Part shown: positions 27,977-61,126 of the stretch, piece after piece
How positions within the stretch are numbered: the stretch's first letter is position 1
Layout of the letters: every line of letters starts with the position of its first letter
Position numbers and translations under genes: made by a program
Assembly (NCBI GenBank): GCA_902522825.1
Contig: CABYXE010000004.1
Span: forward strand, 19,364 to 83,363
Length of the DNA stretch: 64,000 nt
DNA from: an uncultured SAR86 cluster bacterium
Lineage (GTDB): Bacteria > Pseudomonadota > Gammaproteobacteria > Magnimaribacterales > AG-339-G14
Direction: 5' to 3'
The notes under the pieces: generated by a model
Database searches by the model: none
The model's input: the letters and a program-made list of their open reading frames with translations, nothing else
What the model was told of the DNA's origin: nothing

Positions 27977-28031
27977 AAGACAGCAAAGTATTCTCCCATT
28001 AGAAAGAATTTAAAACAATTAAGATTTTGAA

Positions 28032-28478: not shown

Positions 28479-28481
28479 AAT

Positions 28482-28751
28482 TTAGTTATGACTATCTGTA
28501 TATGGAAGTAAGGCTAAAAGTCTAGCTCTTTTTATGGCAGTTGTTAGTTGTCTTTGATATTTAGCACTAGTTCCTGTCATTCTAGCAGGAGAAATTTTAC
28601 CTGATTCATTAATAAATTTAGAAAGAAGATCAACGTCTTTATAATCGATTTCTTCTACATTAGCCGCAGTAAACTGACAGACTCTTTTTTTATTAAGAAG
28701 ATTGTCTGAATTTTGTTTTCTTGATTTTCTCTTATCAAACTTTCTTTTCAT
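28482..28751 (-). CDS. rpsR: 30S ribosomal protein S18
   Basis: [19 protein letters not shown] and [18 protein letters not shown]. Confidence 0.97.
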
Positions 28752-29219
28752 CTATTTATCCTCTGTCGAGTCATTGCTCTCATTTTGCTTTTGTTCTTGT
28801 GAATCATCACTTGCTTTGTTTTCTTCTTTTGTTTCTGCTTTAACTTCGGCTTCTTTCTTAACAGATTCTAATGTGGTTTCTTGAGAGCTACTGCTCTGAT
28901 CTTTTGTTTGAGTCATTAATGCTGAAGTTTCAGACTCAGCTTTTCTCTTTTTTACAATAGATGAGCGAAGGATGCTTTCATTGAATTTAAAAAGATTTTC
29001 TATTTCTTTAAGGTTTTCGGGCTGGCACTCAAAATTTAACAAAAAGTAATGTCCTTTTGAACAATCATCTATCTGATAGGATAAATCTCTTAACCCAATA
29101 TCTTCGGATCTGTGCAAAACTCCACTAATAGAACTTATTTGTTCTTTGCATTTATCAAAGAGTTTAGACTCTTTCGCCTGCTGTGGATTGACTATATATA
29201 TTAGCTCGTAATGATTCAT
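28752..29219 (-). CDS. rpsF: 30S ribosomal protein S6 with a long acidic/Ser-rich C-terminal tail
   Basis: MNHYELIYIVNP and the S6 core to about residue 95, then a tail of about 55 aa rich in E, S, K and D. It abuts rpsR, with no priB between them. Confidence 0.93.
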   Translation of the reverse strand: MNHYELIYIVNPQQAKESKLFDKCKEQISSISGVLHRSEDIGLRDLSYQIDDCSKGHYFLLNFECQPENLKEIENLFKFNESILRSSIVKKRKAESETSALMTQTKDQSSSSQETTLESVKKEAEVKAETKEENKASDDSQEQKQNESNDSTEDK

Positions 29220-29301
29220 ATTTATTCCTTTTGGTTAATGCCTCTATGTTCAATACAGTAGAAACAAGGAAACGTTGCGAAGTGTATTTTATAAGTATTA
29301 C

Positions 29302-30213
29302 TTAAGCAATAGCTATTTTTATAATCCTTTCTAAAATTGAAATAAAAGACTCATCATCTAATATTGCTGACTTTGGCACTAAGCTTTTTTCAGTCATTCC
29401 TGGAACAGTATTAACTTCCAGGAAATAAAATTTATTTCCATCATCTATTAAATCTACCCTGCCCCAGCCTGAACATCCAATTGCTTCAAAACATTTGGAT
29501 GCTTCCTTTTTTAAAAAAGCCTTCCTCTTAGCACTTAAATCAGCTTTTTTATAAACAGTGTCTTCTTTATTGTATTTAGCATTAAAGTCATAGTAATCGG
29601 CATTAGGGATTATTTCTAAAGGGTTGTAAGCATGATTTCCTATAATTGAAACTGTTAGCTCTTTGCCCTCAACATAAGATTCAATTAATATCTCACTATC
29701 AAATTTTCTTGCTTTTTTTATTGCCTTGTTTAAGTTGCCTTCATTATTTTCAATTATAGAAATACCATAACTTGAACCTTCACTTGCTGGCTTAACAACT
29801 ACTTTATTAGATAAATTTAAAATGTCTTCAAAATTATTATGATTCCACTCTATAAATTGAGGTGAGCATATATTTAATCTTTGCCATATTTTTTTAGTAG
29901 TAATTTTGTTCATTCCTAATTTAGAGGAAATAGCATCGCTGCCAGTATATGGAACGTTTATTTGATCTAAAAAATTTTGTAGATACCCATCTTCACCGCC
30001 TCTTCCATGAACTAAAATAAATGCTAAATCTATGTCTTTAAAAGTCTTTTCTTTGGTGGCCATCTCTTTGGAAACTAAATCTATAAGTTTTGGCTTGAAA
30101 CCATTTTCTAACAAACAATTAAATACAGCTCTTCCACTTTTTACGGAAATATCTCTTTCTGCAGACCATCCTCCAAATATGATTCCTATTTTTAGGGCTT
30201 TAAGATCTTTCAT
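29302..30213 (-). CDS. ddl: D-alanine--D-alanine ligase
   Basis: ATP-grasp fold with FILVHGRGGEDG, EGSSYGI and FLEVNTVPGMT. Confidence 0.95.
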   Translation of the reverse strand: MKDLKALKIGIIFGGWSAERDISVKSGRAVFNCLLENGFKPKLIDLVSKEMATKEKTFKDIDLAFILVHGRGGEDGYLQNFLDQINVPYTGSDAISSKLGMNKITTKKIWQRLNICSPQFIEWNHNNFEDILNLSNKVVVKPASEGSSYGISIIENNEGNLNKAIKKARKFDSEILIESYVEGKELTVSIIGNHAYNPLEIIPNADYYDFNAKYNKEDTVYKKADLSAKRKAFLKKEASKCFEAIGCSGWGRVDLIDDGNKFYFLEVNTVPGMTEKSLVPKSAILDDESFISILERIIKIAIA

Positions 30214-31583
30214 TGATACTGAGATATTAGTTTTGCAAGAGCAGAAGTATTTCCAGCTCCTTGCGTTAGGATTAAAGAATGATCTGAAACTAGATCTTTA
30301 AGCTTTAAAAGCGCATCTTCTACTCCATCTGCTTTAATAATATTATTTTTTGTATTTGCAGCTTTTAATAAATCATCACTTTCAAAACCTTTGATAATTT
30401 TTTCACTTGCCGGATATACATCTAATAAAATTAGATCATCAATTTCAGATAAAATTTCAACAAAATCGTTAAATAAAGCCTTAGTCCTAGAGTATCTATG
30501 AGGCTGGAAAATAACAATTTTTTTGTTATGTTTCCAAACTGTATCAATTGTTTCCAAGGTGACTTTAATTTCTTTAGGATGATGCCCGTAGTCATCAACC
30601 AAAGTTATGCCCTTATTAAAAATATTATTTGAAATTACCTCAAAACGTCGTTCAACTATCTTACAAGTCAACAAAGCTTCTGAAATATGTTTAATATTTA
30701 AACCTTCTTCAATGCTCATAATTATTGAGGCAACAACATTTAGAACATTATGTTCGCCATGCAAAGGTACAGAAAATTTAAAGCAAGAATTATCTAAATT
30801 ATTTTTTAAATTAAATTCACACCCATCAACTGATTGAGTGAGGCCTGTAATCTGGAAATCGTTTGAATTTTTAAAACCATAAGTTATAAAATTTCTTGGA
30901 ACTTCTCTTATTAGTTGTTCAAGTGCTTTCTCGTCACCGCAACAAACTATTTTTCCTTGAAATGGAATATTCAATGCAAATTTTTTAAATGCGTTTTTTA
31001 ATTTTTCATAGTCTCCTTGATAAGTTTCTAAATGATCATTATCAATGCTCGTAATGATTAAGTTACTCGGCTTCAACAAAAGAAAAGAGCCATCGCTTTC
31101 ATCGGCTTCAGCTAAAATATGAGGCCCTTGACCAAGCGAAGCATTTGATTCAAAAGATTTTATTTTTCCTCCAATAATATAAGTAGGATCTAAATTACAT
31201 TTTGTGAAAATATGGGCAATAATACACGTCGTTGTAGTTTTTCCATGACTACCTGCTATTGCAATGCTTTTCTTCATAGTCATTAAGTTAGCTAACATTT
31301 CTGCTCTTTTAATAACGGGTATGCCCGTTTTCTTTCCATAGATAATTTCTGGGTTATCTTCAGCTATAGCAGAAGAGTAGACGATGAGATCTATTTTTTT
31401 TAGATTTTTAGAATCATGGTTTTGAAATATATCTATGCCTAAATTTTGTAATCTTGAAGTTATTTCAGATGGACTATTATCAGATCCTGAAACTTTATAT
31501 CCAGAATTTAAAAGGATTTCTGCTATTCCGCTCATGCCAGCGCCACCAATTCCGATTAAATGAATATTTTTTATCTTATCCAC
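30210..31583 (-). CDS. murC: UDP-N-acetylmuramate--L-alanine ligase
   Basis: IHLIGIGGAGMSGIAE and GSHGKTTTT. Confidence 0.96.
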   Translation of the reverse strand: MDKIKNIHLIGIGGAGMSGIAEILLNSGYKVSGSDNSPSEITSRLQNLGIDIFQNHDSKNLKKIDLIVYSSAIAEDNPEIIYGKKTGIPVIKRAEMLANLMTMKKSIAIAGSHGKTTTTCIIAHIFTKCNLDPTYIIGGKIKSFESNASLGQGPHILAEADESDGSFLLLKPSNLIITSIDNDHLETYQGDYEKLKNAFKKFALNIPFQGKIVCCGDEKALEQLIREVPRNFITYGFKNSNDFQITGLTQSVDGCEFNLKNNLDNSCFKFSVPLHGEHNVLNVVASIIMSIEEGLNIKHISEALLTCKIVERRFEVISNNIFNKGITLVDDYGHHPKEIKVTLETIDTVWKHNKKIVIFQPHRYSRTKALFNDFVEILSEIDDLILLDVYPASEKIIKGFESDDLLKAANTKNNIIKADGVEDALLKLKDLVSDHSLILTQGAGNTSALAKLISQYQ

Positions 31584-32695
31584 TAAGTCCTCTTTATTTC
31601 TTCATAAATAATTTTTTCTGGATGCTTTAAAGATGATCTGTAAGAGTTTTCTTTCATTAGCTCTAATTTTGTTACTTCTGTTTTCTTGATATTTTCTAAA
31701 ACTAAAATTAGATCCTCTTCTAAATTTTTTGTTTCCTCAACTAAAAATCCCGCGTTAACATCTTTCAAACTCTTTGCATTAAAAAACTGATGATTATCTA
31801 CGGCCCAAGGCAAAGGAATAAATATTCCTAATGAACCAGAACAAGCAATCTCAGAAACAGTTAAGGCTCCAGATCTACAAATTATAATATCTGCCCATCC
31901 GTAATATTCATGAATATTTTCTAAATATTCAATTATTTCTACTCTATTTTTTTGGATTAAATTTTCTTTATATATAGTCTGAGTTTCTTCAAAATTCCCT
32001 CTTCCACATTGATGTTTAATCCATAGATTTTCAATTTTAGATAAAGCTTTTGGCATTGCAGAATTCAAACTTCTTGAGCCTTGACTGCCACCTAAAACAA
32101 GAACTTTAAAAAAATTATCCTTTAAAAAATTTTTTTTACTATCTTCATAAAGATTATAAATATTTAAGTTTAATGGGTTACCAGAAAGAATTATTTTATC
32201 TTCCTCGTTCGATATTTTATTAAAATATTTTTGTGTTTGTTTGAATCCACAAAAAACCTTTTTTACTTTTTTAGTACTCACTAAAAGCCTAGAAACTGAG
32301 CCAGGAATAGTATTCTGCTCTTGCAGATAAACCGGGCCTTTAAAGTAAAAAAAAGCTGCCAACGAAACATACCCTCCAAAAGCTAGCAAAGGAATTTCAT
32401 TTTTAACAAAAATTTTGAATGGCCAGATTTTTATTAAGAAATAGATCCCTGTCAAAAAGAAAGCTATCAATGCTTTAAATTTTGAGAGAAATGATTTTCC
32501 TCTAAACCCTGATAAAGGAATTTTTATAAACTTTATTTTAAGATTTTCAGCAATTTTTTTTTCTGGTCCTCTTGAAGTACCTATCCATATAACCTCAACA
32601 CCCTCAGAAAGGAATTTTTCTGCCATAACTTTTGCAGGATATACATGGCCTCCTGTACCTCCAGATAAAATATAAATCTTTTTTATTTCAGACAT
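31583..32695 (-). CDS. murG: undecaprenyldiphospho-muramoylpentapeptide beta-N-acetylglucosaminyltransferase
   Basis: SGGTGGHVYPA and SRSGALTVSE-like (CRSGALTVSE). Confidence 0.95.
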   Translation of the reverse strand: MSEIKKIYILSGGTGGHVYPAKVMAEKFLSEGVEVIWIGTSRGPEKKIAENLKIKFIKIPLSGFRGKSFLSKFKALIAFFLTGIYFLIKIWPFKIFVKNEIPLLAFGGYVSLAAFFYFKGPVYLQEQNTIPGSVSRLLVSTKKVKKVFCGFKQTQKYFNKISNEEDKIILSGNPLNLNIYNLYEDSKKNFLKDNFFKVLVLGGSQGSRSLNSAMPKALSKIENLWIKHQCGRGNFEETQTIYKENLIQKNRVEIIEYLENIHEYYGWADIIICRSGALTVSEIACSGSLGIFIPLPWAVDNHQFFNAKSLKDVNAGFLVEETKNLEEDLILVLENIKKTEVTKLELMKENSYRSSLKHPEKIIYEEIKRT

Positions 32696-33875
32696 TTAAA
32701 ATTTTATTTTTAATTATAGAAGATTCTGAAATTTCAAAATTTATTCTTAGTACCAAAGCAATTAGTGCAAACATTAGTAAAAGATTGGTTCCACCATAAC
32801 TTATAAAAGGGAGCGTGATCCCTTTAGTAGGAAGCATCCCGCTAGATACACCTATATTAATAAATACATGTAAAGCAATACAAATACCTGCTCCATAGGC
32901 AATATAGGAACTTAAATAATATTGTGCATGTCTGGCTAATCTTCCTATATAAAAACATTTAAAGATCAAGAAAGAAAAGACAAACACTAGGAAAATACAG
33001 AAAAGCAAACCCAATTCTTCGGCAATTATTGCAAAAATAAAATCAGTTTGAGCATCAGGAAGATAATGAAGTTTTTGAAGACTCTCTCCTAAGCCAACCC
33101 CAAACCAGTCTCCTCTTCCAAAAGCAATCAAGGAATGAGAAAGTTGCCACCCTTCTTCTTGATAAGTTTCCCAAGGATTCATAAAACTTAAAATTCTTTT
33201 CATTCTCCAGGGGACAGTTAAGATCATTAGAACAAAAACAGATATTCCTAAAGAAAAAATAACTAATAAATGTTTTATTGGGGCTCCTGCAATAAACATG
33301 ATGCTTAGAGCAACAATAAAAATTACTGCGGAAGAACCTAAATCTGGTTCAAATAAAACTAGGGCTATTGCCATCACAACTACTAGAATTGGCTTCCAGA
33401 ATCCTTGCCATTTTTCTTTAAATTCTTCTAGTCTTCTAGAACAATATGAGGAAATGTAAATTATTAAAGCAAATTTCATTATTTCCGAGGGTTGTAAGGA
33501 AAAACCAAAAATTCTTATCCATCTATTTGCTCCATTTACTTCTTGCCCTATGAATGGAGCATAAACTAAGAAAAGCAAAACAAAAGCTAGTAATAATATT
33601 TGAATGTCTATCTTTGACCAAAAATTTACTGGAAACCTAAAAATAAGCAAAAAAACAATTAAAGCGATAACTATTTTACTTAGATGAGAGATAGTCATAG
33701 AAAAACTTCCATCTGTTAATGGCAGAGAAACAGAAGAAACCATAACAAGGCCGAATAGAGATAAAAAGAAGACCGAAAAAATTATACCCCAATCAAAATC
33801 CTTAAAGTTGTAGTCTCTGTATAACTCTCCAAAAATTATTCTTTGCCAAAGAGATTGTCTATTACTTTTATTCAT
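32688..33875 (-). CDS. ftsW: peptidoglycan glycosyltransferase FtsW (SEDS family)
   Basis: Polytopic membrane protein with QPSE(I/F)MK and THTDFIFA-like (AQTDFIFAIIAEELG). I set the start at MNKSN, an ATGAATAA overlap with the murD stop. Confidence 0.92.
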   Translation of the reverse strand: MNKSNRQSLWQRIIFGELYRDYNFKDFDWGIIFSVFFLSLFGLVMVSSVSLPLTDGSFSMTISHLSKIVIALIVFLLIFRFPVNFWSKIDIQILLLAFVLLFLVYAPFIGQEVNGANRWIRIFGFSLQPSEIMKFALIIYISSYCSRRLEEFKEKWQGFWKPILVVVMAIALVLFEPDLGSSAVIFIVALSIMFIAGAPIKHLLVIFSLGISVFVLMILTVPWRMKRILSFMNPWETYQEEGWQLSHSLIAFGRGDWFGVGLGESLQKLHYLPDAQTDFIFAIIAEELGLLFCIFLVFVFSFLIFKCFYIGRLARHAQYYLSSYIAYGAGICIALHVFINIGVSSGMLPTKGITLPFISYGGTNLLLMFALIALVLRINFEISESSIIKNKILNV

Positions 33876-35064
33876 TAAGAACCATTTTTTTAAAAGTATC
33901 TCCTCTTTCATGATAACTAGAAAAAGCATCTAGGCTTGAACAAGCCGGCGATAAAAGAATTACCTGATCAACAAGGGCAACTCGTTCAGCAATTTTTAAA
34001 GCTTCCTTTAAATCTTTAGCTTCGTATAATTTTTCTTTATGAACATTACTTTTAATCAAGTCTCTATCCTCGCCATATACGATTATATTTTTACAATTCT
34101 CAGATAGAAAATTTGAAAATTTATTAAAATCTACTCCTTTCCCTCTTCCTCCGCATAAGATATTAACTTCTCCAAATTTTTTTGCACTTTCTACAGCTTC
34201 TTTGGCTGCGCCAATATTTGTTGCTTTAGAGTCGTTTATATATGTCCTTCCTTTTTTATCTTGATGAAAAATTTCAAATCTATGATCTAGTTTTAAATAA
34301 TTTCCCAAAAAATTTTCTAAATTAATATTTAAATTAAGAGAAGTTAAAATGGCATCAACAGCATTTAAATTTTGCTCTTCTATTCCCAAGTTTTTAGAAC
34401 TAAAGAAAATATCTGCATTAAAAATGTCATTTTTATTGATTTCATTTCCAATTTTAATTTTTGCTTTTGTAAAAATTGAATTTTTAGTTTTAAGATAGTT
34501 TTTAAAAGATTTATGGTAATCCAAATGATCTTCAGTAATATTCAAAATTGCTGCAATGTCACATTTAAGATTATTGCTTATTTCTAAGTGAAAACTTGAT
34601 ACCTCTATTAAAGAAAAACTTAAGCTTTCTTCAATATAATCCAAAACTGGTAAGCCAATATTTCCAATTGCCTTCGCTTTAAAGCCGTTTTTATTTAAAA
34701 TTTGTTCCAGCATTGAACAGACAGAAGACTTACCATTTGTTCCAGTAATTAATATTTTTTTTGAATTGTGTTCTCTGGTAAAGATTTCTATATCCGTCTC
34801 CAGAGGAATGCTTTTTTTTATAATTTCTTTATAAATTGGATGATTTATATCGAATCCTGGAGAACATATAACTCTTGAGTAATCTTTTAAATCGATATCT
34901 TTATAGGTTTTTAATTTTTTTAAAAATTCCTTATTTCTTATAAATTCAGCTGGTAAGTTTTCTTTATCTCTAGAATCAAAAAAATTAAATTTTGATTTAT
35001 TTTTTAAAAATCTTCCGACTGATTGTCCGGTTATACCTGTCCCTAGAATCAAAACAGAATCCAT
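33868..35064 (-). CDS. murD: UDP-N-acetylmuramoylalanine--D-glutamate ligase
   Basis: ILGTGITGQS and ITGTNGKSS. 398 aa. Confidence 0.93.
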   Translation of the reverse strand: MDSVLILGTGITGQSVGRFLKNKSKFNFFDSRDKENLPAEFIRNKEFLKKLKTYKDIDLKDYSRVICSPGFDINHPIYKEIIKKSIPLETDIEIFTREHNSKKILITGTNGKSSVCSMLEQILNKNGFKAKAIGNIGLPVLDYIEESLSFSLIEVSSFHLEISNNLKCDIAAILNITEDHLDYHKSFKNYLKTKNSIFTKAKIKIGNEINKNDIFNADIFFSSKNLGIEEQNLNAVDAILTSLNLNINLENFLGNYLKLDHRFEIFHQDKKGRTYINDSKATNIGAAKEAVESAKKFGEVNILCGGRGKGVDFNKFSNFLSENCKNIIVYGEDRDLIKSNVHKEKLYEAKDLKEALKIAERVALVDQVILLSPACSSLDAFSSYHERGDTFKKMVLNE

Positions 35065-35081
35065 CTAAAACACCATTTAAT

Positions 35082-36164
35082 CTATCTTAACCTAAAAGTT
35101 GCTAGTGCAAATAAAACAAGTATCAAGGTAATAATCCAAAATCTAACTATAATTTTTGGTTCTGCCCATCCTGATAACTCAAAGTGATGGTGGATAGGAG
35201 ACATTTTAAAAACTCTCTTGCCTCTTGTTTTAAATGAGATGACTTGAATAATTACCGACAGAGTTTCCATGACAAATACCCCGCCCATAATAGCTAGAAT
35301 GACTTCTTGTCTAACCATTACAGCAATCGTTCCTATGGCTGCTCCTAAAGATAAAGAACCTACATCTCCCATAAAAATTTGTGCTGGATAGGTGTTAAAC
35401 CATAAGAATCCTATTCCTGCACCAATAAGTGCGCCACATACAATTAAAATTTCTCCAGAATTAGGAAGATAGGGAATATTCAAGTAATCAGAAAGAATTA
35501 CATTACCTGACATGTATGCAACTATTCCTAATCCACCAGCAACCATTACGGAGGGCATTATCGCTAGGCCATCTAATCCATCTGTAAGATTTACAGCGTT
35601 ACTGGTTCCTACTATTACGAACAGTGAAAGAAATATAAACCATATACCAAGCGGAAGAGAAAACTCTTTAAAGAAAGGAAGTATCAAACTTGTTTCTTGA
35701 ATAGTCTCGGCAGAAAAATACAAAATTAAAACTGCAATTAGAGCAAAAGAAAATTGCCAAAAAAGTTTACTTTTTCCAGATAGTCCGTCGCTATTCTGAT
35801 TCTTCAATTTTAGATAATCATCTAAAAACCCAATGGCTCCAAAGGACGAAATTACAAATAATAAAATCCAGAGAAATTTGCTTTGCAAATCCCCCCAGCA
35901 CAAACAAGAAAATAAAATTGCTCCTAATATTAAAATACCCCCCATAGTAGGTGTTCCGCCTTTGTCTAAATGGGATTCCGGTCCAACCGACCTTATTACT
36001 TGACCGTAATTTTGTTTTTTTAAATAATTTATTATTGGATTACCAAAAAAAAGACAGAAAACTAAAGCTGTTAACGTAGAAAGTATTGCTCTAAAAGTTA
36101 AGTAATTAAATACTCTAAAAGGACCATAACTTTCAGCTAAATAATCTAATAAAGGCAAAAACAT
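35082..36164 (-). CDS. mraY: phospho-N-acetylmuramoyl-pentapeptide transferase
   Basis: [22 protein letters not shown] and SPIHHHFE. Confidence 0.98.
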
Positions 36165-36166
36165 TT

Positions 36167-37420
36167 TTATAAAAATAGTTTAACTATATCGTCCATTTTA
36201 ACTGATCTAGAGGCTTTAAAGAGAATAACCGACTCTTCATTAAGGTAAATTTCTAAATTTTTGAAAATAGCTTTTGGGTTAATAATTTTTAAATTCTTAG
36301 CGTTAATTTTTGAATCTAAATTTATGGCTAACACTAGATCAAATAAATTCAATGCTTCTTTAATAATCTCATCTTGAAGAATTAGTGAATTCTCTCCTAA
36401 TTCATTCATTTTTCCCATAACGCAAATTTTATTCTTGCAAGATATTGATTCGATTTTTTTAAAAGCAGCTTTAAATGACTCTGGATTTGCATTGTAAGTA
36501 TCGTCGACTATATTTACTTTGTTTTTTCCGATCAATAATTCTTGCCTTCCCGGAACTACTGCTTTAATTTCAAGATCACTAATATTTTTTTCTGATAAAA
36601 AAAATTTTTTGTTTATTTCTTCCGGCAAGCAAGAAATTACAGCTTCTGCCATTTCAAGGTTTTGATCAAAACTAGAGCTATCTTTAGGACGTAAAAATAT
36701 TTTTTTTCTTTTTTTTATTTTTTCCTTTGCTTTTACTAAATGATCTTCTTTAGCTCTTATTAAACAGGTTCCACTTGAAGAAACGTAACTAAAAAGATCT
36801 GTTTTTTCCTCCAAAACTCCATTTATATTTTTTAATCCTTCTAAATGAGAACTGCCTATATTAGTGATGACGCCAATATTTGGTTTTAAAAATGATGCTA
36901 GTTCTTTAATCTCCCCTATTGCATTGGTTCCTATCTCAAAAATAGCTAATTTATGACTATTATCTAATCTGAGGAGAGATAAATATAAGCCTAATCTATT
37001 ATTCCAATTTCCAGGAGATTTAAAAACCTCGTCTTTATTTTCAAATAACTCTCTGGTTAATTGATAAAGGATTTCTTTCGTGGATGTTTTTCCATTACTT
37101 CCTGTTATGGAAATTATTATTTTTTTAAAATTTGATCTTTGAAAATTAGCCAATTTTTCTAAAAACAAAAAACAATTATCAGTTTTGATATGAGTTGTAC
37201 TTGGAATAGTTTTTTCAGTAATTATGCAACTTGCTCCCTTTTCTAAAGCCTCATCAATAAAATCGTGTCCATCATAATTTGGACCGCTCAAGGCTAAAAA
37301 AATATCTCCTTTTGATATAGACCTCGTGTCAATTGAAACTTTTTTAAAAAAAGCATCTTTTCCAACTAAATTGCAATTACCTATTTTTGAGACATTACTT
37401 AGCTTGTGATCTATTAACAA
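36167..37420 (-). CDS. murF: UDP-N-acetylmuramoyl-tripeptide--D-alanyl-D-alanine ligase
   Basis: [12 protein letters not shown] and DDTYNANP. 417 aa. Confidence 0.93.
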
Positions 37421-38839
37421 TTAAATAAAACTCCTAACTATTTCATAGTCATTGCTCTCAATAGTTTTGTTTTTTATTTCTTGGTTTGATTCATGTCCTT
37501 TTCCAGCAAGCAATAACACAGATCCCTCCTTATCTCTAGATAATATTTTTAGACCAAACTTAATAGCTTTTGTTCGATCATTAATGATTTCAACTTTTTT
37601 TTGATCCTTTATTCCTTCTAGAATGTCTTTAATAATTACTTTTGGATTTTCAAATCTTGGATTATCATTTGTTAAAATTATTTTATCTGCAAAAGAATCA
37701 GCAATAGCTCCCATTAAAGATCTCTTTCCTTGATCTCTGCCCCCTCCACATCCAAAAAGACATATTAGACTTCCATGATATTTCTTCTTTAAAGACTTCA
37801 GAATATTTTCTAAAGCTTCAGGTGTATGGGCATAATCTATATAAAGATATTTATTAGAATCAATATTTATCTTTTGAAATCTACCTGGCAAATCATAAAT
37901 TTTTTTTAGATTTAATTTATTTAAATTAGGTTTTTTTGATGAGAGACAAAAAAGACCTAAAGCAGCTGCAATATTAACCATTGTGTGATCAGCAAAAATT
38001 CTATCTGGAAGATTTACATGGCCCCAAGGTGTTTTAATGAAAAACTTACCTTTGTTTTTTTCGATACAAATATCAGATTTTTTATTTTTTCTGGAGACCG
38101 AAACGAAATCATGACTATTTGAAAAAATCTTTTTTCCAACTTTGGAATCAATATTTATTACCGCTCCTTTGAATTTATTATTCAAAAAAAAGGATTCCTT
38201 TACTTTTGCATATTTGTTAATTGAGGAATGGTAATCTAAATGATCTCTTGAAAAACTAGTAAAACAGCCATAATCAAAATCTATTCCTGCAATTCTTTCT
38301 TGATCAATCCCGTGAGAAGAAACTTCAAATATTGCAGCTTTTTTTTTCTCAAGAAGAAAATTACTTAGAATTTTATTTAGAGTAAAAACATCTGGAGTAG
38401 TAAGCTTTGAATTATAAATACCAGATTCTTTTAATTTAATACTCGAAATCAGACCGATATCTTTTTTGATCTGACTAAAAAGCTGAAATAAATAATAAGA
38501 AACTGAGGATTTTCCATTTGTTCCCGTTAAGCCAAAAACTTCAATTTTTTTTGAAGGATTTTCAAAAAATCTATTACTTAAAAATCCTAGCTTTTCCTTG
38601 AGGTCGCTTACATAGATTATTTTTTTTTCTATGTTTTCAATAGACTTGTTATTAGTCAGGATGCAATTTGCTCCTTTTTTTAAAGCCTCTTGATTGTATT
38701 TTTTTTGTTGATCGCTATCATTTGCTAAAGAGATATATAAGTCTCCTTTTTTTATTTCTTGAGAATCTAGAGAAATAGAACTAATTGTAAAATCATTAAT
38801 TTTTCCTGAATATTCAGGTAACAAATCATGCAAACTCAT
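37421..38839 (-). CDS. murE: UDP-N-acetylmuramoyl-L-alanyl-D-glutamate--2,6-diaminopimelate ligase
   Basis: GLTGTNGKSS, DYAHTPEALE and GCGGGRDQGKR. Confidence 0.93.
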   Translation of the reverse strand: MSLHDLLPEYSGKINDFTISSISLDSQEIKKGDLYISLANDSDQQKKYNQEALKKGANCILTNNKSIENIEKKIIYVSDLKEKLGFLSNRFFENPSKKIEVFGLTGTNGKSSVSYYLFQLFSQIKKDIGLISSIKLKESGIYNSKLTTPDVFTLNKILSNFLLEKKKAAIFEVSSHGIDQERIAGIDFDYGCFTSFSRDHLDYHSSINKYAKVKESFFLNNKFKGAVINIDSKVGKKIFSNSHDFVSVSRKNKKSDICIEKNKGKFFIKTPWGHVNLPDRIFADHTMVNIAAALGLFCLSSKKPNLNKLNLKKIYDLPGRFQKINIDSNKYLYIDYAHTPEALENILKSLKKKYHGSLICLFGCGGGRDQGKRSLMGAIADSFADKIILTNDNPRFENPKVIIKDILEGIKDQKKVEIINDRTKAIKFGLKILSRDKEGSVLLLAGKGHESNQEIKNKTIESNDYEIVRSFI

Positions 38840-40467
38840 TAAAGTGTATTTTTAATACTTTTTATTATTTTAGAAAAAACAGGAGCAGCAACTTGGCCTC
38901 CACCCTCCCCATTTTCTTTAGAGTCTCTGACTAAAATACCCAAAACATAATTTTTATTTTCTAACTCAGCCATTCCAATAAAACTCGCATTAAATGATTT
39001 TTCAGTATACCCCTGATTAGTTAATCTTTTAGTAGTCCCAGTTTTACCAGTAATTTTAATATTTTTAACTAAAGCTTTTTTTCCAGTTCCATTATTGACT
39101 GCTTCAAAGAGCATTTTATTAATTTCTTGAGCTATTTCAGATGAAATTACTTTGTTTTCAAATCCATTGTAAGAATCAGAAATCAAGTTTAAACCTTCGA
39201 ACTGTCCATCTGAAAACAGAGCTGTGTAAGCTCCCACTAACTGAATCAATGTAACTTGAAGACCGTAGCCATAACAGAGGCTTACTTTTTCTCTTTCAGA
39301 TAAGTTAGCGCTGGATGGTAAATAACCCTCTCTATTTGAAATAAATATTTCATTTATATACTGTCCAAAACCCCATTGATAAAAATTTTTAATAATTTTT
39401 TCTGAATTTGATTTATCGCATAGTTTGACCATTGCTACATTGCTAGATTTAGATATAACTTCAGATAAATTAAGGGTTCCATAATCTTTAAAATCGCTAG
39501 TCATGAAGCCTTCATATTCTATAAATCCAGGAGAAGTCTTAATCTTTTCGTCTTTATTGATTATCTTATTTTTAAGTAAACCTGCTAAAGCAAGTGGTTT
39601 TACAGTTGACCCTGGTTCAAATAAATCTGTAGCAGATCTATTTGATAATAAAGAAGGATTCATTCCTCTCCTGTCATTTGGATTAAAGCTTGGATAATTA
39701 GCCATAGCCAGAATATCTTTAGAGTTCAAATCAACTAAAATTGCAGATGCTGATGAAGCTTGATAGTAATTAAATGCTTTTTTTAATTCTTGATAAACTA
39801 AATATTGAAGTTTTGCATCTAAAGTAGTTCTTACATCTTGCCCATGATCTGGAGGAATTATATTTGTTTCAATAATTTCTCCTTTGTTAGTTCTGACGTA
39901 TTTTTTTGAGCCGTCCTTTCCAGAAAGTTTTTTATTTACAGACAGCTCAATACCCTCTTGTCCGCTATTATTAAAATTTGTTAGTCCTATAACTTGTGAA
40001 AGAATTTCTCCTTCTGGATAACTTCTTTTATATTTCGAAATACTTCTCAATCCAGGTATTTTTTTGATTTTCAACTTATTTAGTTCATCCTGAGATGCAT
40101 TATGATCCAATACGATATATTTTCTTTTCTTGTTAGATAGTTTGTTTTTAAGGTTTTGTGAATTTATATCTAAGATTTTAGATATGGATAAAATGTGAGA
40201 AGGATCAAAAGAAAAATTATTTATTTGAATTCCTATTTCGTAAGCTGGTATATCTTCGGCAAGGATTTGTAAATTTCGATCAAGTATTTTTCCTCGCCTG
40301 GACAGAAGCTTTAAAGTCCTTTCTGAGCTAGCTTTAGATTTATCTAATGCAATATCGAAGTCGTTCTTTTGTAGAAAATAAAACCTGATAGGTAACGAAA
40401 TTAACAAGCAAAATATAAAGAACCAAACTATTAATTCTCTATATTTGCTTGTTAGTTCAAAATTCAA
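38839..40467 (-). CDS. ftsI: peptidoglycan D,D-transpeptidase FtsI (PBP3, class B PBP)
   Basis: N-terminal TM, then PGSTVKP (SxxK), SSN (SxN) and KTGTT (KTG). Confidence 0.92.
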   Translation of the reverse strand: MNFELTSKYRELIVWFFIFCLLISLPIRFYFLQKNDFDIALDKSKASSERTLKLLSRRGKILDRNLQILAEDIPAYEIGIQINNFSFDPSHILSISKILDINSQNLKNKLSNKKRKYIVLDHNASQDELNKLKIKKIPGLRSISKYKRSYPEGEILSQVIGLTNFNNSGQEGIELSVNKKLSGKDGSKKYVRTNKGEIIETNIIPPDHGQDVRTTLDAKLQYLVYQELKKAFNYYQASSASAILVDLNSKDILAMANYPSFNPNDRRGMNPSLLSNRSATDLFEPGSTVKPLALAGLLKNKIINKDEKIKTSPGFIEYEGFMTSDFKDYGTLNLSEVISKSSNVAMVKLCDKSNSEKIIKNFYQWGFGQYINEIFISNREGYLPSSANLSEREKVSLCYGYGLQVTLIQLVGAYTALFSDGQFEGLNLISDSYNGFENKVISSEIAQEINKMLFEAVNNGTGKKALVKNIKITGKTGTTKRLTNQGYTEKSFNASFIGMAELENKNYVLGILVRDSKENGEGGGQVAAPVFSKIIKSIKNTL

Positions 40468-40468
40468 A

Positions 40469-41593
40469 CTAATCTATTTGACGTTTTACAAAGGATGGAA
40501 CATCTAAATAATCTAAAGATGCTTCTCTTTCTATGTCTTGCAAGTCATTGATGGGCTTGACTGTATTAATAGATGGAACCGATGAAGAATTTTTATTCCC
40601 CATTGTATCTATTCCAAAATTTGATTTCTTTTTTCCACTGCCAAGGCCGGTTGCAACAATAGTAACTTTAAGATCTCCTGGCTCCATAGAATTATCTATA
40701 GCTACACCATGAATGATCATGGCATCATCGGCGGCAAATTGATCAATTTGTTCTAAGACCTTTTCAATCTCTCCAATGCTTACTTTTTCACCTCCTGTGA
40801 TGTTCACAAGAACTCCTCTGGCATTTTCAAGGTTAATATCCTCAAGTAATGGACTTCCCACCGCAGCAGAAGCAGCTTCTAAAGCCCTACTCGGACCCGA
40901 AGCGATGCCTGTCCCCATCATTGCAGTTCCTTGTTCCGACATTACAGTTTTCACATCCTGAAAATCTACATTTACAGTCCCTACTTTTGTGATGATATCG
41001 GAAATTCCTCTTACTGCTCCCAAAAGAACATCATTTCCGTGAGCAAAAGCTTCTGTGAAATCACACTCTCCACCAAAAACTTCGGAAAGTTTTTGATTTG
41101 GAATAGTTATTAAAGAATCAACTTCTGATCTTAAAGCCTCAATTCCTTTTTCAGCGATAACATCTTTTCTTTCTAGTCTTAAAGGTTTTGTAACAACTGC
41201 AACAGTTAGAGCTCCTATAGATTTAGCAACTTGTGCAACTATTGGAGATGCTCCTGTACCAGTTCCTTTTCCCATTCCTGCTGCTATAAAGACCATATCT
41301 GATCCTTCTAAAAGAGTTTCAAGTCTTTCGTAATCATCCAAAGCTGTTTCTCTTCCAACTTCTGGTTTAGCTCCAGCTCCTTGTCCGCTATTAGTGAGTT
41401 CGCCCAACATATGCCTCACATCAGCTTGACTTTTTTCTAGTGCTTGGCTGTCGGTATTGATTGCTATGGTTTCAACACCATCTAATCCACCGTTCACCAT
41501 ATGATCGATGGCGTTACCGCCACAACCGCCTACTCCAACTACTCTAATTAGAGCTCCTGGTTCCCCAGTTTTTTCGATTACTTTCCAGTTCAT
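40469..41593 (-). CDS. ftsZ: cell division GTPase FtsZ
   Basis: VVGVGGCGGNAIDHM, GMGKGTGTGASP and the C-terminal peptide DYLDVPSFVKRQ. Confidence 0.98.
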   Translation of the reverse strand: MNWKVIEKTGEPGALIRVVGVGGCGGNAIDHMVNGGLDGVETIAINTDSQALEKSQADVRHMLGELTNSGQGAGAKPEVGRETALDDYERLETLLEGSDMVFIAAGMGKGTGTGASPIVAQVAKSIGALTVAVVTKPLRLERKDVIAEKGIEALRSEVDSLITIPNQKLSEVFGGECDFTEAFAHGNDVLLGAVRGISDIITKVGTVNVDFQDVKTVMSEQGTAMMGTGIASGPSRALEAASAAVGSPLLEDINLENARGVLVNITGGEKVSIGEIEKVLEQIDQFAADDAMIIHGVAIDNSMEPGDLKVTIVATGLGSGKKKSNFGIDTMGNKNSSSVPSINTVKPINDLQDIEREASLDYLDVPSFVKRQID

Positions 41594-41611
41594 AGCTACC
41601 TCCTATAAAAT

Positions 41612-42841
41612 TTAAAAGTTGTTTTGAATCCATTTAAAAGCTTGATTAACAAAACCTTTGTTTCTAGTGAATGCAAAATCAAGATAATCTTCTTCCGTTT
41701 CTTTTTGTCCATATAAAACCAATCCCACTGATGTTGAGTAAACCGGATTTTTTAAAATATCTGTGAGACCTACCAATCCACTTGGCTGCCCTACTCTGAC
41801 TGGGATTTGGAAAATTTCTTCACCCAATTGTGAAATTCCTTCAATTTTTGAAGCACCTCCGGTTAGAACGAATCCGGCAGGTAATGCTTGGGAGAAATCA
41901 CTTATAGCAAGTCTTTGTTTTATAAGATTAAAAATCTCTGCATATCGTTGCTCAATAACATCTGATAAGGCTTGTCTTGAGAAAACTTTATCTGATCTTC
42001 CATTTATCGATGGGGAAGAAATTTGCTCTCCTTCTCTAGTTAAAGCGCTGAAGGCGCAGCCATACTTTTTCTTCAATTCTTCAGCTTGATTAGTTGGAGT
42101 TTGAATTGCTCTAGCAATATCATTCGTAACATGATCACCTCCGACAGGGATATTTACTGTATGACTTATTGATCCATTCATAAATATTGCAACATCGGAA
42201 GTACCTCCACCTAAATCAATCAAACAGACTCCTAGTTTTTTTTCGTCTTCAGTCAATACAGAATAGCTTGATGCAAGTTGCTCTAAAATATAATTTTCAA
42301 CAGAAATGCCACATGCCTTCATACAAGAATCAATATTTTCCGCTGCATTTTTACTACAAGTAACAAGGTGAACTTTTGCTTCCAACCTCACTCCTGCCAT
42401 TCCCAAAGGCTCTTTAATTCCACTTTGTTGATCTATTAAAAAATCTCTTGGTAAGATGTGAAGCATTTTATGACCTTCTGAAATGCTTTGAGCTCCTGCT
42501 GAGTTTATAACCTTATCCACATCGCTTGCCTTTACCTTTCTGTCTCTAATTTGGACGGCTCCTTCTGAGTTAAGCCCGCAAGAACTCCCTCCTGAAATTC
42601 CTACATAAGCTTTATTTACGGCTACTCCTGACATCATTTCTGCTCTGTCAGTAGCTTCTCTTATTGCATTTACCGTTGATTCAATATCTACTACTACTCC
42701 ATCTCTTAATCCTCTGGAAGGATGAGAACCAAGACCTATAACGTTAATTCCGTCTGGTGATGATTCTGCAATTAAACAAACTACCTTTGATGTACCTATA
42801 TCAATTCCAACTTTTATATTTTGATAATTATTAGCAGCCAT
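41612..42841 (-). CDS. ftsA: cell division protein FtsA
   Basis: Actin-fold motifs GIDIGTSKV, IDLGGGTSD and LTGGAS. Confidence 0.97.
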   Translation of the reverse strand: MAANNYQNIKVGIDIGTSKVVCLIAESSPDGINVIGLGSHPSRGLRDGVVVDIESTVNAIREATDRAEMMSGVAVNKAYVGISGGSSCGLNSEGAVQIRDRKVKASDVDKVINSAGAQSISEGHKMLHILPRDFLIDQQSGIKEPLGMAGVRLEAKVHLVTCSKNAAENIDSCMKACGISVENYILEQLASSYSVLTEDEKKLGVCLIDLGGGTSDVAIFMNGSISHTVNIPVGGDHVTNDIARAIQTPTNQAEELKKKYGCAFSALTREGEQISSPSINGRSDKVFSRQALSDVIEQRYAEIFNLIKQRLAISDFSQALPAGFVLTGGASKIEGISQLGEEIFQIPVRVGQPSGLVGLTDILKNPVYSTSVGLVLYGQKETEEDYLDFAFTRNKGFVNQAFKWIQNNF

Positions 42842-43314
42842 TAGAAATACTTAATTGCGATCTTAGTTTTATATCTAAGATCTATTGATTCAAAGTTTTT
42901 GATTAATTTTTGTGATTCATTAGAAACCAGAAATAAATTTAACCTCAAAAGCTGCTCTTCAAGCTTATGTTGCTGAAATTTAATTTCTTGACCTTCTTCG
43001 AGTAAGGCTTTTATATTTCCTGATCTGCTTATAGAAAGAGATTTAATTTCTAAGTCATGTGGAATAAATTTTTTCTGAATTTTATAAAAACCATCAATCA
43101 TAATAAATTTTTGATCTTCGGCTCCAAATAAACCTACTAACCCAAGTTTATCCAACGCTCCTTTATTAAAAATTTCTCCTGTCTGAGAAAGATAAAAATC
43201 TTTATTCCAAATAAAATGAAAATTTTCTAATTTATTTTCATTCGTTTTAGAAAAGGCAGACAAATTTGTTGCTACTAGTAAAAATAATGTAGTAATTTTA
43301 ATTTTCATTTTCAA
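42841..43314 (-). CDS. ftsQ: truncated FtsQ-like protein (TM plus beta domain, POTRA largely missing)
   Basis: 157 aa, N-terminal TM. The C-terminal part is colinear with the E. coli FtsQ beta domain and ends in IDLRYKTKIAIKY (compare VDLRYDSGAAVGW). It lies directly upstream of ftsA. Confidence 0.65.
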   Translation of the reverse strand: MKMKIKITTLFLLVATNLSAFSKTNENKLENFHFIWNKDFYLSQTGEIFNKGALDKLGLVGLFGAEDQKFIMIDGFYKIQKKFIPHDLEIKSLSISRSGNIKALLEEGQEIKFQQHKLEEQLLRLNLFLVSNESQKLIKNFESIDLRYKTKIAIKYF

Positions 43315-43588
43315 CTCTTAGCTTCAAGATTTTTGTTTCGTTTGGTTTGATCATTGCTAAATTAATTTGTGATTTTTTATTAGCTTCTATAAAAGATTTT
43401 TTATATAAAAGTTTATTGTTCAGCTCTATAAATCTAGACTCAAGAAGAAGTTCTCTTGATTTTTCAAAATCTAAATTTGAATTCAGTATCCTCAACTCAT
43501 GCACGTTGTTTATTTTTAAAATAGATAAAAGTGAAACACTTATACTTAAAAAAAATATAAGCAGATATTTATTCACAAGCTTATCCAT
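43298..43588 (-). CDS. ftsL: cell division protein FtsL
   Basis: Small bitopic protein (TM plus coiled coil) directly after rsmH. I set the start at MDKLVNKY, an ATGGATAA overlap with the rsmH stop; the track start at 43633 is less likely. Confidence 0.65.
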   Translation of the reverse strand: MDKLVNKYLLIFFLSISVSLLSILKINNVHELRILNSNLDFEKSRELLLESRFIELNNKLLYKKSFIEANKKSQINLAMIKPNETKILKLRVENEN

Positions 43589-44459
43589 TAAGTTTTTCTC
43601 CAACACGTAAAATTGCGCTTCGGGATCTTGCATTAATAATAATTTCCTCTTGAGAAGGTTTTATTATTTTGCCGATAATTTTTAAAGAATTTTCAATTTC
43701 TTTATTTTCAATTTTTCCTTTCAGGAAGTTTTTGACAATCCTGTCTTCCATAGAATGGAAGGATATGACTACAAGCCTTCCTTTGTCCTGAAGTAAATCA
43801 ATAGATGCTATTAACGCTTTCTTAATTTCTTCTAATTCGTTATTAATAAAAATTCTAATTGCTCTAAAAATATTTGTTGCTGGATGTTTTTTTGAATTTG
43901 CATATTTTTTGCCAGCAAAAGCTATGGCTGCAAGTTCTTCCGTGGATTCAATTAACTTGTTTTTTCTTCTCTCCACTAACCTTTTTGCAAACAATCTAGA
44001 TTTTCTCTCTTCTCCTAAATAATAAAAAATATCTGCTATTTCTTGTTCTTTTGCCTTATTTATCCAATCTAAAGCTGAGATTTTATTTGTTTGATCCATT
44101 CTCATATCCAGTTTTCCATTTCTTTGAAAGCTAAAACCTCTTGAGGCATCATCTAGTTGTAAAGAAGAAACTCCTAAATCAAAAAAAATTCCATCAAATT
44201 TTTTATTTAAAAATAGTTCGCCAATTTTAGAGAATTTAGAGTATTGAAATTTAAATCTTGGATCTTGAATTTTATTAGCGTACTTAAGGACAGCTTGATC
44301 CTGATCTATTGCACTTAAACTTCCTCTAGAATCTAATCTTTTGAGAATCTCTTTTGAATGTCCGCCTAAGCCAAAGGTGCAATCTAGATAAGCCCCAGAT
44401 TTATTAAGCATGAGAGAATCAAGGCTTTCATTAATCATTACAGGAGCATGAGAAAACAT
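43581..44459 (-). CDS. rsmH: 16S rRNA (cytosine1402-N4)-methyltransferase
   Basis: HAPVMINE, DCTFGLGGHS, DLGVSS and SFHSMEDR. Confidence 0.96.
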   Translation of the reverse strand: MFSHAPVMINESLDSLMLNKSGAYLDCTFGLGGHSKEILKRLDSRGSLSAIDQDQAVLKYANKIQDPRFKFQYSKFSKIGELFLNKKFDGIFFDLGVSSLQLDDASRGFSFQRNGKLDMRMDQTNKISALDWINKAKEQEIADIFYYLGEERKSRLFAKRLVERRKNKLIESTEELAAIAFAGKKYANSKKHPATNIFRAIRIFINNELEEIKKALIASIDLLQDKGRLVVISFHSMEDRIVKNFLKGKIENKEIENSLKIIGKIIKPSQEEIIINARSRSAILRVGEKLNG

Positions 44460-44935
44460 TAGAAAGGTATCCTCCTGACTTCTTCAGGTAACTCAATATC
44501 TATTCTTTCGCCTTTTATTTCTTTACCTGATTCTTTTATTTTCCAATTTTTTTCACTCCAGAGTTCAAATTTTTGTCCCATACCTATTAAGACTACCTTT
44601 TGCTTTTCTTTTAATTGAGCATATTCTCTTAGAGGCTGTGGAAACAAAATATTCATTCTTTCCGAAATCTCAAAATCTATTTGATGAGCATTTCCTAAAA
44701 AATTCCATTGCAAAGCTCTTAATTTAGGATTTAATCCTGACAAATTTTCAAAAGAATTTGAAATTTCTCTCCAAAGATTTCCAGGATATATCAATAGAGA
44801 TGGGTATTGAGGATCTTTAGTAATAATTAGGGAACCAGCGGCTAACTCTTTGAGTTGCTCTTTATATTTTGCAGGCATTGCTATTCTCCCCTTATTATCT
44901 AAGACGAGGCTGCTTAAGCCATATATTCCAGCCAT
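44459..44935 (-). CDS. mraZ: transcriptional regulator MraZ
   Basis: LDNKGRIAMPAKY plus a second SpoVT/AbrB-like half. It is the first gene of the dcw cluster. Confidence 0.93.
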   Translation of the reverse strand: MAGIYGLSSLVLDNKGRIAMPAKYKEQLKELAAGSLIITKDPQYPSLLIYPGNLWREISNSFENLSGLNPKLRALQWNFLGNAHQIDFEISERMNILFPQPLREYAQLKEKQKVVLIGMGQKFELWSEKNWKIKESGKEIKGERIDIELPEEVRRIPF

Positions 44936-44950
44936 ATTTTAGTCCCTTTT

Positions 44951-44990
44951 GTCACACTTCTTACTATTTTTACACACTTTTACACACTTT
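44951..44990 (-). promoter_or_regulatory. putative MraZ operator: three AAGTGTG direct repeats in 10-bp phase
   Basis: The minus strand reads AAAGTGTGTAAAAGTGTGTAAAAATAGTAAGAAGTGTGACAAAA. GTGTG cores are at 44987-44983, 44977-44973 and 44957-44953, spaced 10 and 20 bp apart, 18-55 nt upstream of the mraZ ATG. Confidence 0.6.
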
Positions 44991-45023
44991 AGAAGCTTAA
45001 AGAGCTAAATTTTAGGTTTTTTT

Positions 45024-45360
45024 GGAGAGCTGATCCATAAGCCGGGTTCTGTTTTAAGTAATCATTCATCTTGAGTTTACGTCACCGCAAACCTCTAGCA
45101 ACTTACCCAGATTCAATGCGGATCACATTAAAGAATCTCTATTTAGTCTTGCTCCAGACGGGGTTTACCTTGCAATATTTGTCTCCAAATATACGGTGAG
45201 CTCTTACCTCACCTTTTCACCCTTACCCAAAAATTGGGCGGTATACTTTCTGCTGCACTTGCCGTAACAGTTTTCACTGCTCCCAGGCGTTACCTGGCGT
45301 CTTATCCTAAGGAGCCCGGACTTTCCTCTGATTAAAAACCAGCGATTACTCGATCAGCTC
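45024..45360 (-). ncRNA. rnpB: RNase P RNA, bacterial type A
   Basis: The reverse complement contains GAGGAAAGTCCGGGCTCC, GCCAGGTAACGCCTGGG, GGTAAGGGTGAAAAGGTG and ACAGAACCCGGCTTAT, and the 5' end (GAGCTGATC) pairs with the 3' end (GATCAGCTC). About 337 nt. Confidence 0.95.
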
Positions 45361-45366
45361 GAAGAA

Positions 45367-45395
45367 ATTATATTATTTTTTTATATGTGTGTCGT
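45367..45395 (-). promoter_or_regulatory. putative sigma-70 promoter of rnpB, embedded in the rsmI 3' end
   Basis: The minus strand reads ACGACA, a 17-nt spacer, then TATAAT, which ends 6 nt before the predicted RNA 5' end (45360). The -10 box immediately abuts the rsmI stop codon (45373-45375). Confidence 0.55.
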
Positions 45396-46182
45396 ATATT
45401 TCTTTAGAAGTCTTCTTTGAAATTTTTGCAAGAATCTTAGAGATTCTTTTTAAAGGCAGATGTTCTTTCAATTCTTTCATTAGAATTTCTTCTTCAAAAT
45501 CGTTTATCGAAGACTTATCTTTTGTGCCCTCAATCAAGAATACTAATTCTCCTTTTTCTAGGTTTTTATCATTGTGGATTAGACCTAAAATATTCTCCGT
45601 TGTCCCGGTATAAAAATTTTGATGTATTTTAGAAATTTCTTTTGCGATAGAGACCCTTCTTTCTCTTCCAAAGATTTTTAAAGAGCTTTCAACAAGTTTT
45701 TTTATTCTTCTAGGAGACTCAAATAAAATTAGTGTTTTCTCTTCGTAAAGGTATTTTTTCAAAAAATTCTCTAATTCATTTTTTTTTCTTGGTGGGAATC
45801 CTTCAAAAATAAATTTATCAGTTTTTAATCCAGATCCTATTAATGCTGAAATAACTGAACTCGGGCCTGGAATGGGATTAACTAAAATATCCTTTTCTTT
45901 GGCCTTTTGTACAATTTCAAATCCAGGATCTGAGATTAGTGGGGTTCCTGCATCAGAAATTAAAGCTATCGACTTGCCGGATTCAAGGTAAGAAATATAT
46001 TTGTCTATCTTTTTTACGTTAGTAAATTCATGGAGAGAACTAAATTTAGTTTTGATATTAAACTCTTTTAGCAAAATAAGAGATTTTCTTGTATCTTCGC
46101 AAAGTATCAAATCTACCTGATTTAAAATATCTAAAGATCGAAATGATAAATCTCTTAAATTACCAATTGGTGTTGCAACCAA
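45373..46182 (-). CDS. rsmI: 16S rRNA (cytidine1402-2'-O)-methyltransferase
   Basis: LYLVATPIGNLRDLSFRS and CEDTR. The start codon is uncertain; the track uses TTG at 46182. Confidence 0.9.
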   Translation of the reverse strand: MVATPIGNLRDLSFRSLDILNQVDLILCEDTRKSLILLKEFNIKTKFSSLHEFTNVKKIDKYISYLESGKSIALISDAGTPLISDPGFEIVQKAKEKDILVNPIPGPSSVISALIGSGLKTDKFIFEGFPPRKKNELENFLKKYLYEEKTLILFESPRRIKKLVESSLKIFGRERRVSIAKEISKIHQNFYTGTTENILGLIHNDKNLEKGELVFLIEGTKDKSSINDFEEEILMKELKEHLPLKRISKILAKISKKTSKEIYDTHIKK

Positions 46183-46200
46183 ATATAATGTTCCTGAGAT

Positions 46201-61119: not shown

Positions 61120-61126
61120 ATTAAAT

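Follow-up and report, generated by a model that had tools for sequence, protein, structure and literature searches.

The dcw cluster (genes for division and the cell wall) of SAR86 bacteria carries ftsQ-ftsA-ftsZ between ftsL and ftsI, and we could confirm this order as a real, ancient and vertically inherited permutation of the known cluster. It is described here for a 64-kb stretch of DNA from an uncultured SAR86 cluster bacterium, the whole of which is called the window below. In the canonical proteobacterial cluster (E. coli or Pseudomonas type) the genes run mraZ-rsmH-ftsL-ftsI-murE-murF-mraY-murD-ftsW-murG-murC-ddlB-ftsQ-ftsA-ftsZ-lpxC. Like that cluster, the window has 15 contiguous, tightly packed genes on one strand (44935–29302, minus strand) that start with mraZ-rsmH and have a putative MraZ operator upstream. 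The minus strand reads rsmI, RNase P RNA, mraZ-rsmH-ftsL-ftsQ-ftsA-ftsZ-ftsI-murE-murF-mraY-murD-ftsW-murG-murC-ddl, then rpsF-rpsR-rplI-dnaB. The order inside each of the two blocks, ftsI to ddl (with murE to murC canonical throughout) and ftsQ-ftsA-ftsZ, is kept. Unlike the canonical cluster, SAR86 has ftsQAZ between ftsL and ftsI and not distal to ddl, ddl abuts rpsF, lpxC does not follow ftsZ, and FtsQ is without a POTRA domain. An earlier note on this DNA had claimed this position of ftsQ-ftsA-ftsZ, and the NCBIfam and Pfam family scans, by which every open reading frame (ORF) of the cluster was assigned, bear it out.

Gene order across SAR86

Close kinship to SAR86 genomes and a low GC content place the window in SAR86 (Magnimaribacterales). 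FtsZ, FtsA and MraY are 86–87% identical to those of the SAR86 single-cell genome AH-779-I09. The GC content is 0.317, and values across the sampled SAR86 loci are 0.32–0.36; GC contents of 31–40% and genomes of 1.05–1.66 Mbp have been reported for SAR86 (PMC11582366). When one genome per species was scanned, the closest relatives were three SAR86 single-cell genomes (L007, L008, and L009; FtsZ 86, 63, and 62% identical), and beyond SAR86 FtsZ identity drops to 50% or less (ordinary gammaproteobacteria, 45–50%). All three single-cell genomes have rsmI, mraZ, rsmH, (ftsL, ftsQ), ftsA, ftsZ, ftsI, and murE on to murC. Deeper loci were picked from FtsZ homologues by identity tier and their contigs were then inspected; the rearranged order was also present in L087 (FtsZ 73%), L091–L093 (75%), L088 (60%), and L089 and L090 (53%). 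The ddl-rpsF-rpsR-rplI-dnaB junction is just as old; it recurs in L094, L095 and a third contig, with Ddl identities of 79, 46, and 43%. Canonical order was found in all inspected outgroups (L010–L023 and L059): murC, (ddl), ftsQ, ftsA, ftsZ follow one another in Oceanospirillum, Cellvibrio, Idiomarina, Aeromonas, and Ignatzschineria, and likewise in a genome of the Azotimanducaceae, a symbiont of psyllids, and a metagenome-assembled genome labelled Burkholderiales.

A neighbour-joining tree of FtsA, FtsZ, and MraY from 77 loci grouped all rearranged loci in one clade, and in a tree of a 30-taxon subset this clade had a bootstrap of 100/100. The rearranged order is a shared derived character of the SAR86 clade. 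The earlier note had named the dcw order of relatives as a comparison to make; the same order recurs in every SAR86 lineage sampled, and this contig is no lone exception.

The order of dcw genes is among the most conserved in bacteria, has been argued to matter for assembly of the division machinery, and serves as a phylogenetic character; surveys stress its stability (PMC8871954). The literature that we searched held no description of the dcw order, the division genes or a POTRA-less FtsQ of SAR86, although Megrian et al. 2022, reportedly the largest dcw survey known, may mention them. The fts genes are not mentioned in the paper on a SAR86 isolate (PMC11582366). That an entire bacterial order, very abundant in the ocean, shares a stable permutation amounts to a natural experiment. 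It shows that the ftsI-to-ddl and ftsQAZ blocks can be swapped with each block intact, and it provides a simple rare-genomic-change marker for Magnimaribacterales.

Origin of the arrangement

Separate trees were made for the moved block (FtsA and FtsZ) and the stationary block (MraY, MurD, FtsW, MurG, and MurC). Both gave SAR86 the same placement with the same sister groups, and SAR86 monophyly was 100/100 in each. Because the two blocks are placed alike, the move was internal to the SAR86 ancestor and not a foreign acquisition. A single intragenomic relocation in that ancestor, vertically inherited since, is the simplest account; the adjacencies ddl-ftsQ and ftsZ-lpxC would have been lost at the same time or afterwards. 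The upstream neighbours in SAR86 are rplM-rpsI-petABC-sspA-lpoA-rsmI-rnpB, a layout like that of Pseudomonas. The deep loci retain this synteny (rplM-rpsI-petABC-sspA-lpoA-rsmI-mraZ), so only the distal block moved.

An arrangement of this kind could in principle be produced by a chimeric contig that misjoins two parts of the cluster, but nothing was found in favour of this. At least 20 metagenome contigs, assembled independently, encode the identical FtsZ protein, and ftsQ-ftsA-ftsZ-ftsI stand in this order in six of the six that were examined, which come from different samples and different assemblers. Three SAR86 single-cell genomes show the same junctions, as do divergent lineages with DNA that is different throughout. 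Misassembly is ruled out by these contigs, genomes and lineages, its probability being practically nil, and the claim of the earlier note that the arrangement evolved and is no assembly join stands. Acquisition of a foreign ftsQAZ cassette, inserted after ftsL and followed by loss of the native distal copy, would account in one step for a ddl without ftsQAZ behind it, and the GC content is indeed slightly higher across ftsA and ftsZ (0.36 versus about 0.30). A higher GC content is, however, expected in the most conserved genes; the nearest FtsZ relatives outside SAR86 are the ordinary gammaproteobacteria mentioned above, and the moved and stationary blocks agree on the position and the sisters of SAR86, all of which makes horizontal transfer very improbable. 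We consider it even less probable that the window holds an extra, paralogous set, with a second, canonical ftsQAZ copy elsewhere in the genome. FtsZ paralogues do occur in some bacteria and the visible portion of this genome is only 64 kb, but ddl is followed directly by rpsF in all lineages, which leaves no copy at the canonical site, and the FtsZ search returned a single identity-graded SAR86 series with no second family. Duplicates are also unlikely in genomes of the published size (PMC11582366).

Junctions and expression of the cluster

The cluster is 15.6 kb long, has no internal gap above 18 nt and contains nine overlaps; the coordinates that follow are those of the minus strand. It begins with mraZ (44459–44935; TIGR00242, E = 6.5e-26 and 91 bits, under the cut-off of 98.35 bits, with Pfam MraZ matched on identical contigs) and rsmH (also mraW; 43581–44459; TIGR00006, E = 1.6e-92). 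The longest ORF for ftsL opens at 43633, within rsmH; a start at the in-frame ATG at 43588 (ATGGATAA), which overlaps the rsmH stop, is more likely. The ftsL-like gene (43298–43588) then encodes 96 amino acids, with a hydrophobic helix at the N-terminus and a region resembling a coiled coil. Its match to Pfam FtsL (PF04999; 19.2–20.3 bits) is below the cut-off of 22.9, and ORFs at the same position pass in L089 (23.0 bits) and L090; the naming as ftsL is based on this sub-threshold match together with position and topology, which fit. The first new junction, between ftsL and the short ftsQ (42841–43308), had been described as an overlap of 17 nt. This holds for a ftsQ start at TTG 43314; the in-frame ATG 43308, chosen by gene callers on related contigs (155 amino acids) and the likelier of the two, shortens the overlap to 11 nt. 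After ftsA (41612–42841; TIGR01174, E = 6.3e-136) comes a spacer of 18 nt with the Shine-Dalgarno sequence AGGAGGT (41598–41604) of ftsZ (40469–41593; TIGR00065, E = 4.3e-107). The ftsZ stop TAG (40471–40469) is separated by one base, as claimed in the earlier note, from the TTG start of ftsI at 40467, the second new junction. The ftsI gene (38839–40467) encodes a class B penicillin-binding protein (PBP) that was recognized by NCBIfam FtsI/PBP2 models and by Pfam PBP_dimer and Transpeptidase. The genes murE (37421–38839), murF (36167–37420), mraY (35082–36164), murD (33868–35064), ftsW (32688 to a start at 33911 or 33929), murG (31583–32695), and murC (30210–31583) were each assigned by an NCBIfam equivalog, and ddl (29302–30213; NF002378, E = 1.8e-91) is the last gene of the cluster. 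A third new junction (28032–29301) replaces ftsQAZ-lpxC; it consists of a spacer, whose previously claimed length of 82 nt is correct, and rpsF-rpsR-rplI, with rpsF starting at 29219, followed by dnaB. The start codons of ftsI, murF, and rsmI are TTG, and murC has GTG.

The upstream boundary of the cluster is a full-length RNase P RNA gene (rnpB, 45022–45361, minus strand; Rfam RF00010, 306 bits, E = 2.5e-99). Between it and mraZ lies a putative MraZ operator of three AAGTGTG boxes (44983–44989, 44973–44979, and 44953–44959, minus strand) in 10-bp phase. These boxes are 18–54 nt upstream of the mraZ ATG and make up three of the five matches in the window; between boxes two and three the window has a degenerate slot, which in L088, with four boxes in phase, holds an intact fourth one. 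GTG(T/G) repeats are found upstream of mraZ in all SAR86 loci. The boxes of the window fit the published MraZ consensus, GTG(G/T) boxes with 6-nt spacers (PMC12957436). No terminator-like sites were found at the cluster junctions in a scan of 28000–46500, which is uninformative in such AT-rich DNA. The close packing, with every gap at or below 18 nt and nine overlaps, offers hardly any space for terminators or for classical promoters between genes, and co-transcription of the cluster is plausible. The conserved GTGT boxes, the short gaps and the overlaps suggest one MraZ-controlled operon, in which the whole cluster would be a single transcription unit read from a promoter just downstream of rnpB.

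Cells need far more FtsZ than FtsI or FtsQ, a requirement that SAR86 shares with E. coli. In E. coli, ftsQAZ is served by internal promoters: ftsQ2p and ftsQ1p in ddlB, ftsAp in ftsQ, and the ftsZ promoters in ftsA. Unlike E. coli, SAR86 has lost the promoter context of a ddlB upstream of ftsQ. Relocation would bring FtsZ and FtsA, the proteins needed most abundantly, near the promoter, and a streamlined genome could thereby drop the internal promoters that E. coli keeps in ddlB, ftsQ, and ftsA. We propose that a position near Pmra, together with translational tuning, replaces promoters of the ddlB type; that relocation would change dosage and the internal promoters, for the earlier note a necessity, is a reasonable inference. 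A partial parallel is the reduced dcw cluster of Mycoplasma, a four-gene operon mraZ-mraW-ftsA-ftsZ (PMC12957436); as in that operon, ftsA and ftsZ of SAR86 are close behind mraZ-rsmH, hence near the MraZ-controlled promoter. Unlike such reduced clusters, or the dispersed ones of Cyanobacteria (PMC8871954), SAR86 keeps the full mur set, ftsI, and ftsW attached downstream, which is a permutation and not a reduction.

Protein ratios would be set at translation, a single message giving plenty of FtsZ but little FtsI. The AGGAGGT of ftsZ is the strongest Shine-Dalgarno sequence of the cluster, and GGAGG or GGAG is kept in eight of eight SAR86 loci; ftsZ, which has the best ribosome-binding site, may be favoured in this way. 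The ftsI gene has no Shine-Dalgarno site, and this low-copy protein is probably translated by inefficient termination-reinitiation at the TTG one nucleotide past the ftsZ stop. This stop-N-TTG junction (40465–40471 in the window, minus strand) is kept in five lineages (the window, L007, L008, L087, and L088), and the deep SAR86 lineages have wider gaps between ftsZ and ftsI (45 and 12 nt). Stop-N-TTG without a Shine-Dalgarno site and the wider gaps of the deep lineages suggest that coupling by termination-reinitiation evolved after the move, as the junctions were compacted, the ftsZ-ftsI gap going from 45 and 12 nt to 1 nt in most others.

Taken as a whole, we consider it probable that a single ancestral relocation gave rise to one promoter-proximal, MraZ-controlled operon with tuning at the level of translation, and that compaction of the junctions and a progressive reduction of FtsQ came later. 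Several points weigh against this account. Loci were sampled by tiers of FtsZ and Ddl similarity and not through exhaustive coverage of the four SAR86 families. A swap of adjacent blocks is insufficient: ddl is followed by rpsF and not by lpxC, and neither lpxC nor the other canonical downstream neighbours were found in the 64-kb window with ORFs from four outgroup loci as queries, so more than a simple exchange happened, with one additional rearrangement or more required. Support for transcription as a single operon comes from gene spacing, and the lack of internal promoters is presumed. A scan for sigma-70 promoters (28000–46500) gave 56 sites versus 77.6 in shuffled sequences, a result that cannot decide the matter in such AT-rich DNA, and the window does contain a promoter-like site within ftsA (41711–41684), with a 9/12 sigma-70 match. 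An adaptive benefit of the relocation is speculative, and the rearrangement could be neutral.

In a neutral rearrangement, without regulatory consequence, the block would have moved with its own internal promoters, a promoter inside ftsZ would feed ftsI and the mur genes, expression ratios would be essentially unchanged, and drift in an ancestral population of small size would have fixed the order. The promoters that E. coli has inside ftsQ and ftsA would travel with the block; the sigma-70-like site in ftsA is a candidate for one, and the strong Shine-Dalgarno sequence of ftsZ means that expression is set at least partly independently of position. In an alignment of eight lineages, however, the ftsA site is not conserved beyond what coding constrains, and it was dropped as a candidate. 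Both the order and its very tight junctions have persisted across divergence down to 53% FtsZ identity, and the conserved stop-N-TTG junction suggests a functional coupling of ftsZ and ftsI. We therefore regard neutrality as unlikely. The permutation offers a test of whether operon position sets FtsZ dosage. It also has a practical side: ftsZ transcripts serve as a growth index across taxa, SAR86 included, with comparable regulation assumed, and a differing operon position could bias such comparisons (PMC13349992). The RNase P RNA gene shares its strand with the dcw cluster and lies only 86 nt upstream of mraZ, about 3.4 kb from ftsZ; its closeness to ftsZ is relevant where ftsZ transcripts are normalised to RNase P (PMC13349992).

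Reduction of FtsQ and surroundings of the cluster

Proteins of the FtsQ/DivIB family consist of a transmembrane helix, a POTRA domain and a beta domain. The FtsQ of the window (155 amino acids) has a hydrophobic N-terminal segment and the C-terminal domain FtsQ_DivIB_C (PF03799; 38.7 bits, cut-off 21). Like the family, the SAR86 protein thus keeps the beta domain and the membrane segment, and FtsL and FtsB are encoded as well; unlike the family, this short FtsQ is without a cytoplasmic tail and without POTRA, and its gene is not in the cluster of one sublineage. POTRA (PF08478) was not matched even at E ≤ 1 in FtsQ of the window, L007, L008, and L009. It is present in the outgroups L010–L016, whose FtsQ (232–350 amino acids) carries both POTRA and the C-terminal domain, and in deep SAR86 lineages, L089 (8068–8739) and L090 (8075–8758), with FtsQ of 223–227 amino acids. 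The protein has 183 amino acids in L009 (8200–8751), where the last POTRA strand is vestigial, 166 in L008 (8252–8752), and 155–158 in L007 (8283–8759), as in the window and L088. Since the deep rearranged lineages still have POTRA, the rearrangement predates POTRA loss. An AlphaFold2 model of the short FtsQ from a 20-sequence alignment (mean pLDDT 56.5, pTM 0.48) was too poor for a fold search. Marine metagenomes contain the 155-amino-acid form in abundance, and at least one NCBI record labels it 'hypothetical protein'.

In a further sublineage (FtsZ 73–75%), three independent contigs (L087, 2131–2340; L091, 732–940; L093, 392–613) have no ftsQ between ftsL and ftsA, a statement that concerns the cluster only. 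FtsL of this sublineage has 68–73 amino acids, and in the SAR86 alignment its C-terminal 26 or so residues, with the conserved L-x-M-x-x-P motif, are gone. Loss of the FtsL C-terminus together with ftsQ argues for a real loss of ftsQ over its relocation. A 99-amino-acid FtsB-like ORF (20274–20573, minus strand) is found in the window right after eno, in the order pyrG-kdsA-eno-ftsB-ispD-like; an FtsQ partner is therefore retained despite the truncation of FtsQ. Loss of the POTRA domain, and of ftsQ from the cluster of one lineage, bears on the minimal FtsQLB module. A bolder reading is tentative at best: SAR86 may have rebuilt the way its division genes are controlled to suit a minimal genome, with proximity to the MraZ promoter in place of internal promoters, the strong Shine-Dalgarno sequence and stop-N-TTG giving the ratio of FtsZ to FtsI, and FtsQLB dismantled stepwise from a full FtsQ to one without POTRA and then to no FtsQ with a C-terminally truncated FtsL. 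If true, this would be the smallest divisome known among free-living gammaproteobacteria whose cell wall is normal.

Upstream of mraZ the RNase P RNA gene is preceded by rsmI, an LpoA-like gene on the opposite strand, and sspA. Downstream of ddl are rpsF, rpsR, rplI, dnaB, alr, an AurF/R2-like oxidase gene, pyrG, kdsA, eno, and the ftsB-like gene. Protein identities between the window and L007 are very uneven: 86–87% for FtsZ, FtsA, and MraY, 58% for Ddl, 54% for MurD, and 44% for FtsQ. A complete mreB-mreC-mreD operon (59768–62173, minus strand) indicates that the elongation machinery is kept; cells of the cultured SAR86 isolate are described as small coccobacilli, not as classical rods (PMC11582366). 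The oxidase-like ORF of 362 amino acids (24368–25456, minus strand), between alr and pyrG, interrupts the otherwise conserved dnaB-alr-pyrG stretch and is not at that position in the deep lineage L094. It has only a weak match to an R2-like ligand-binding oxidase, and its counterpart in L095 bears Pfam AurF.

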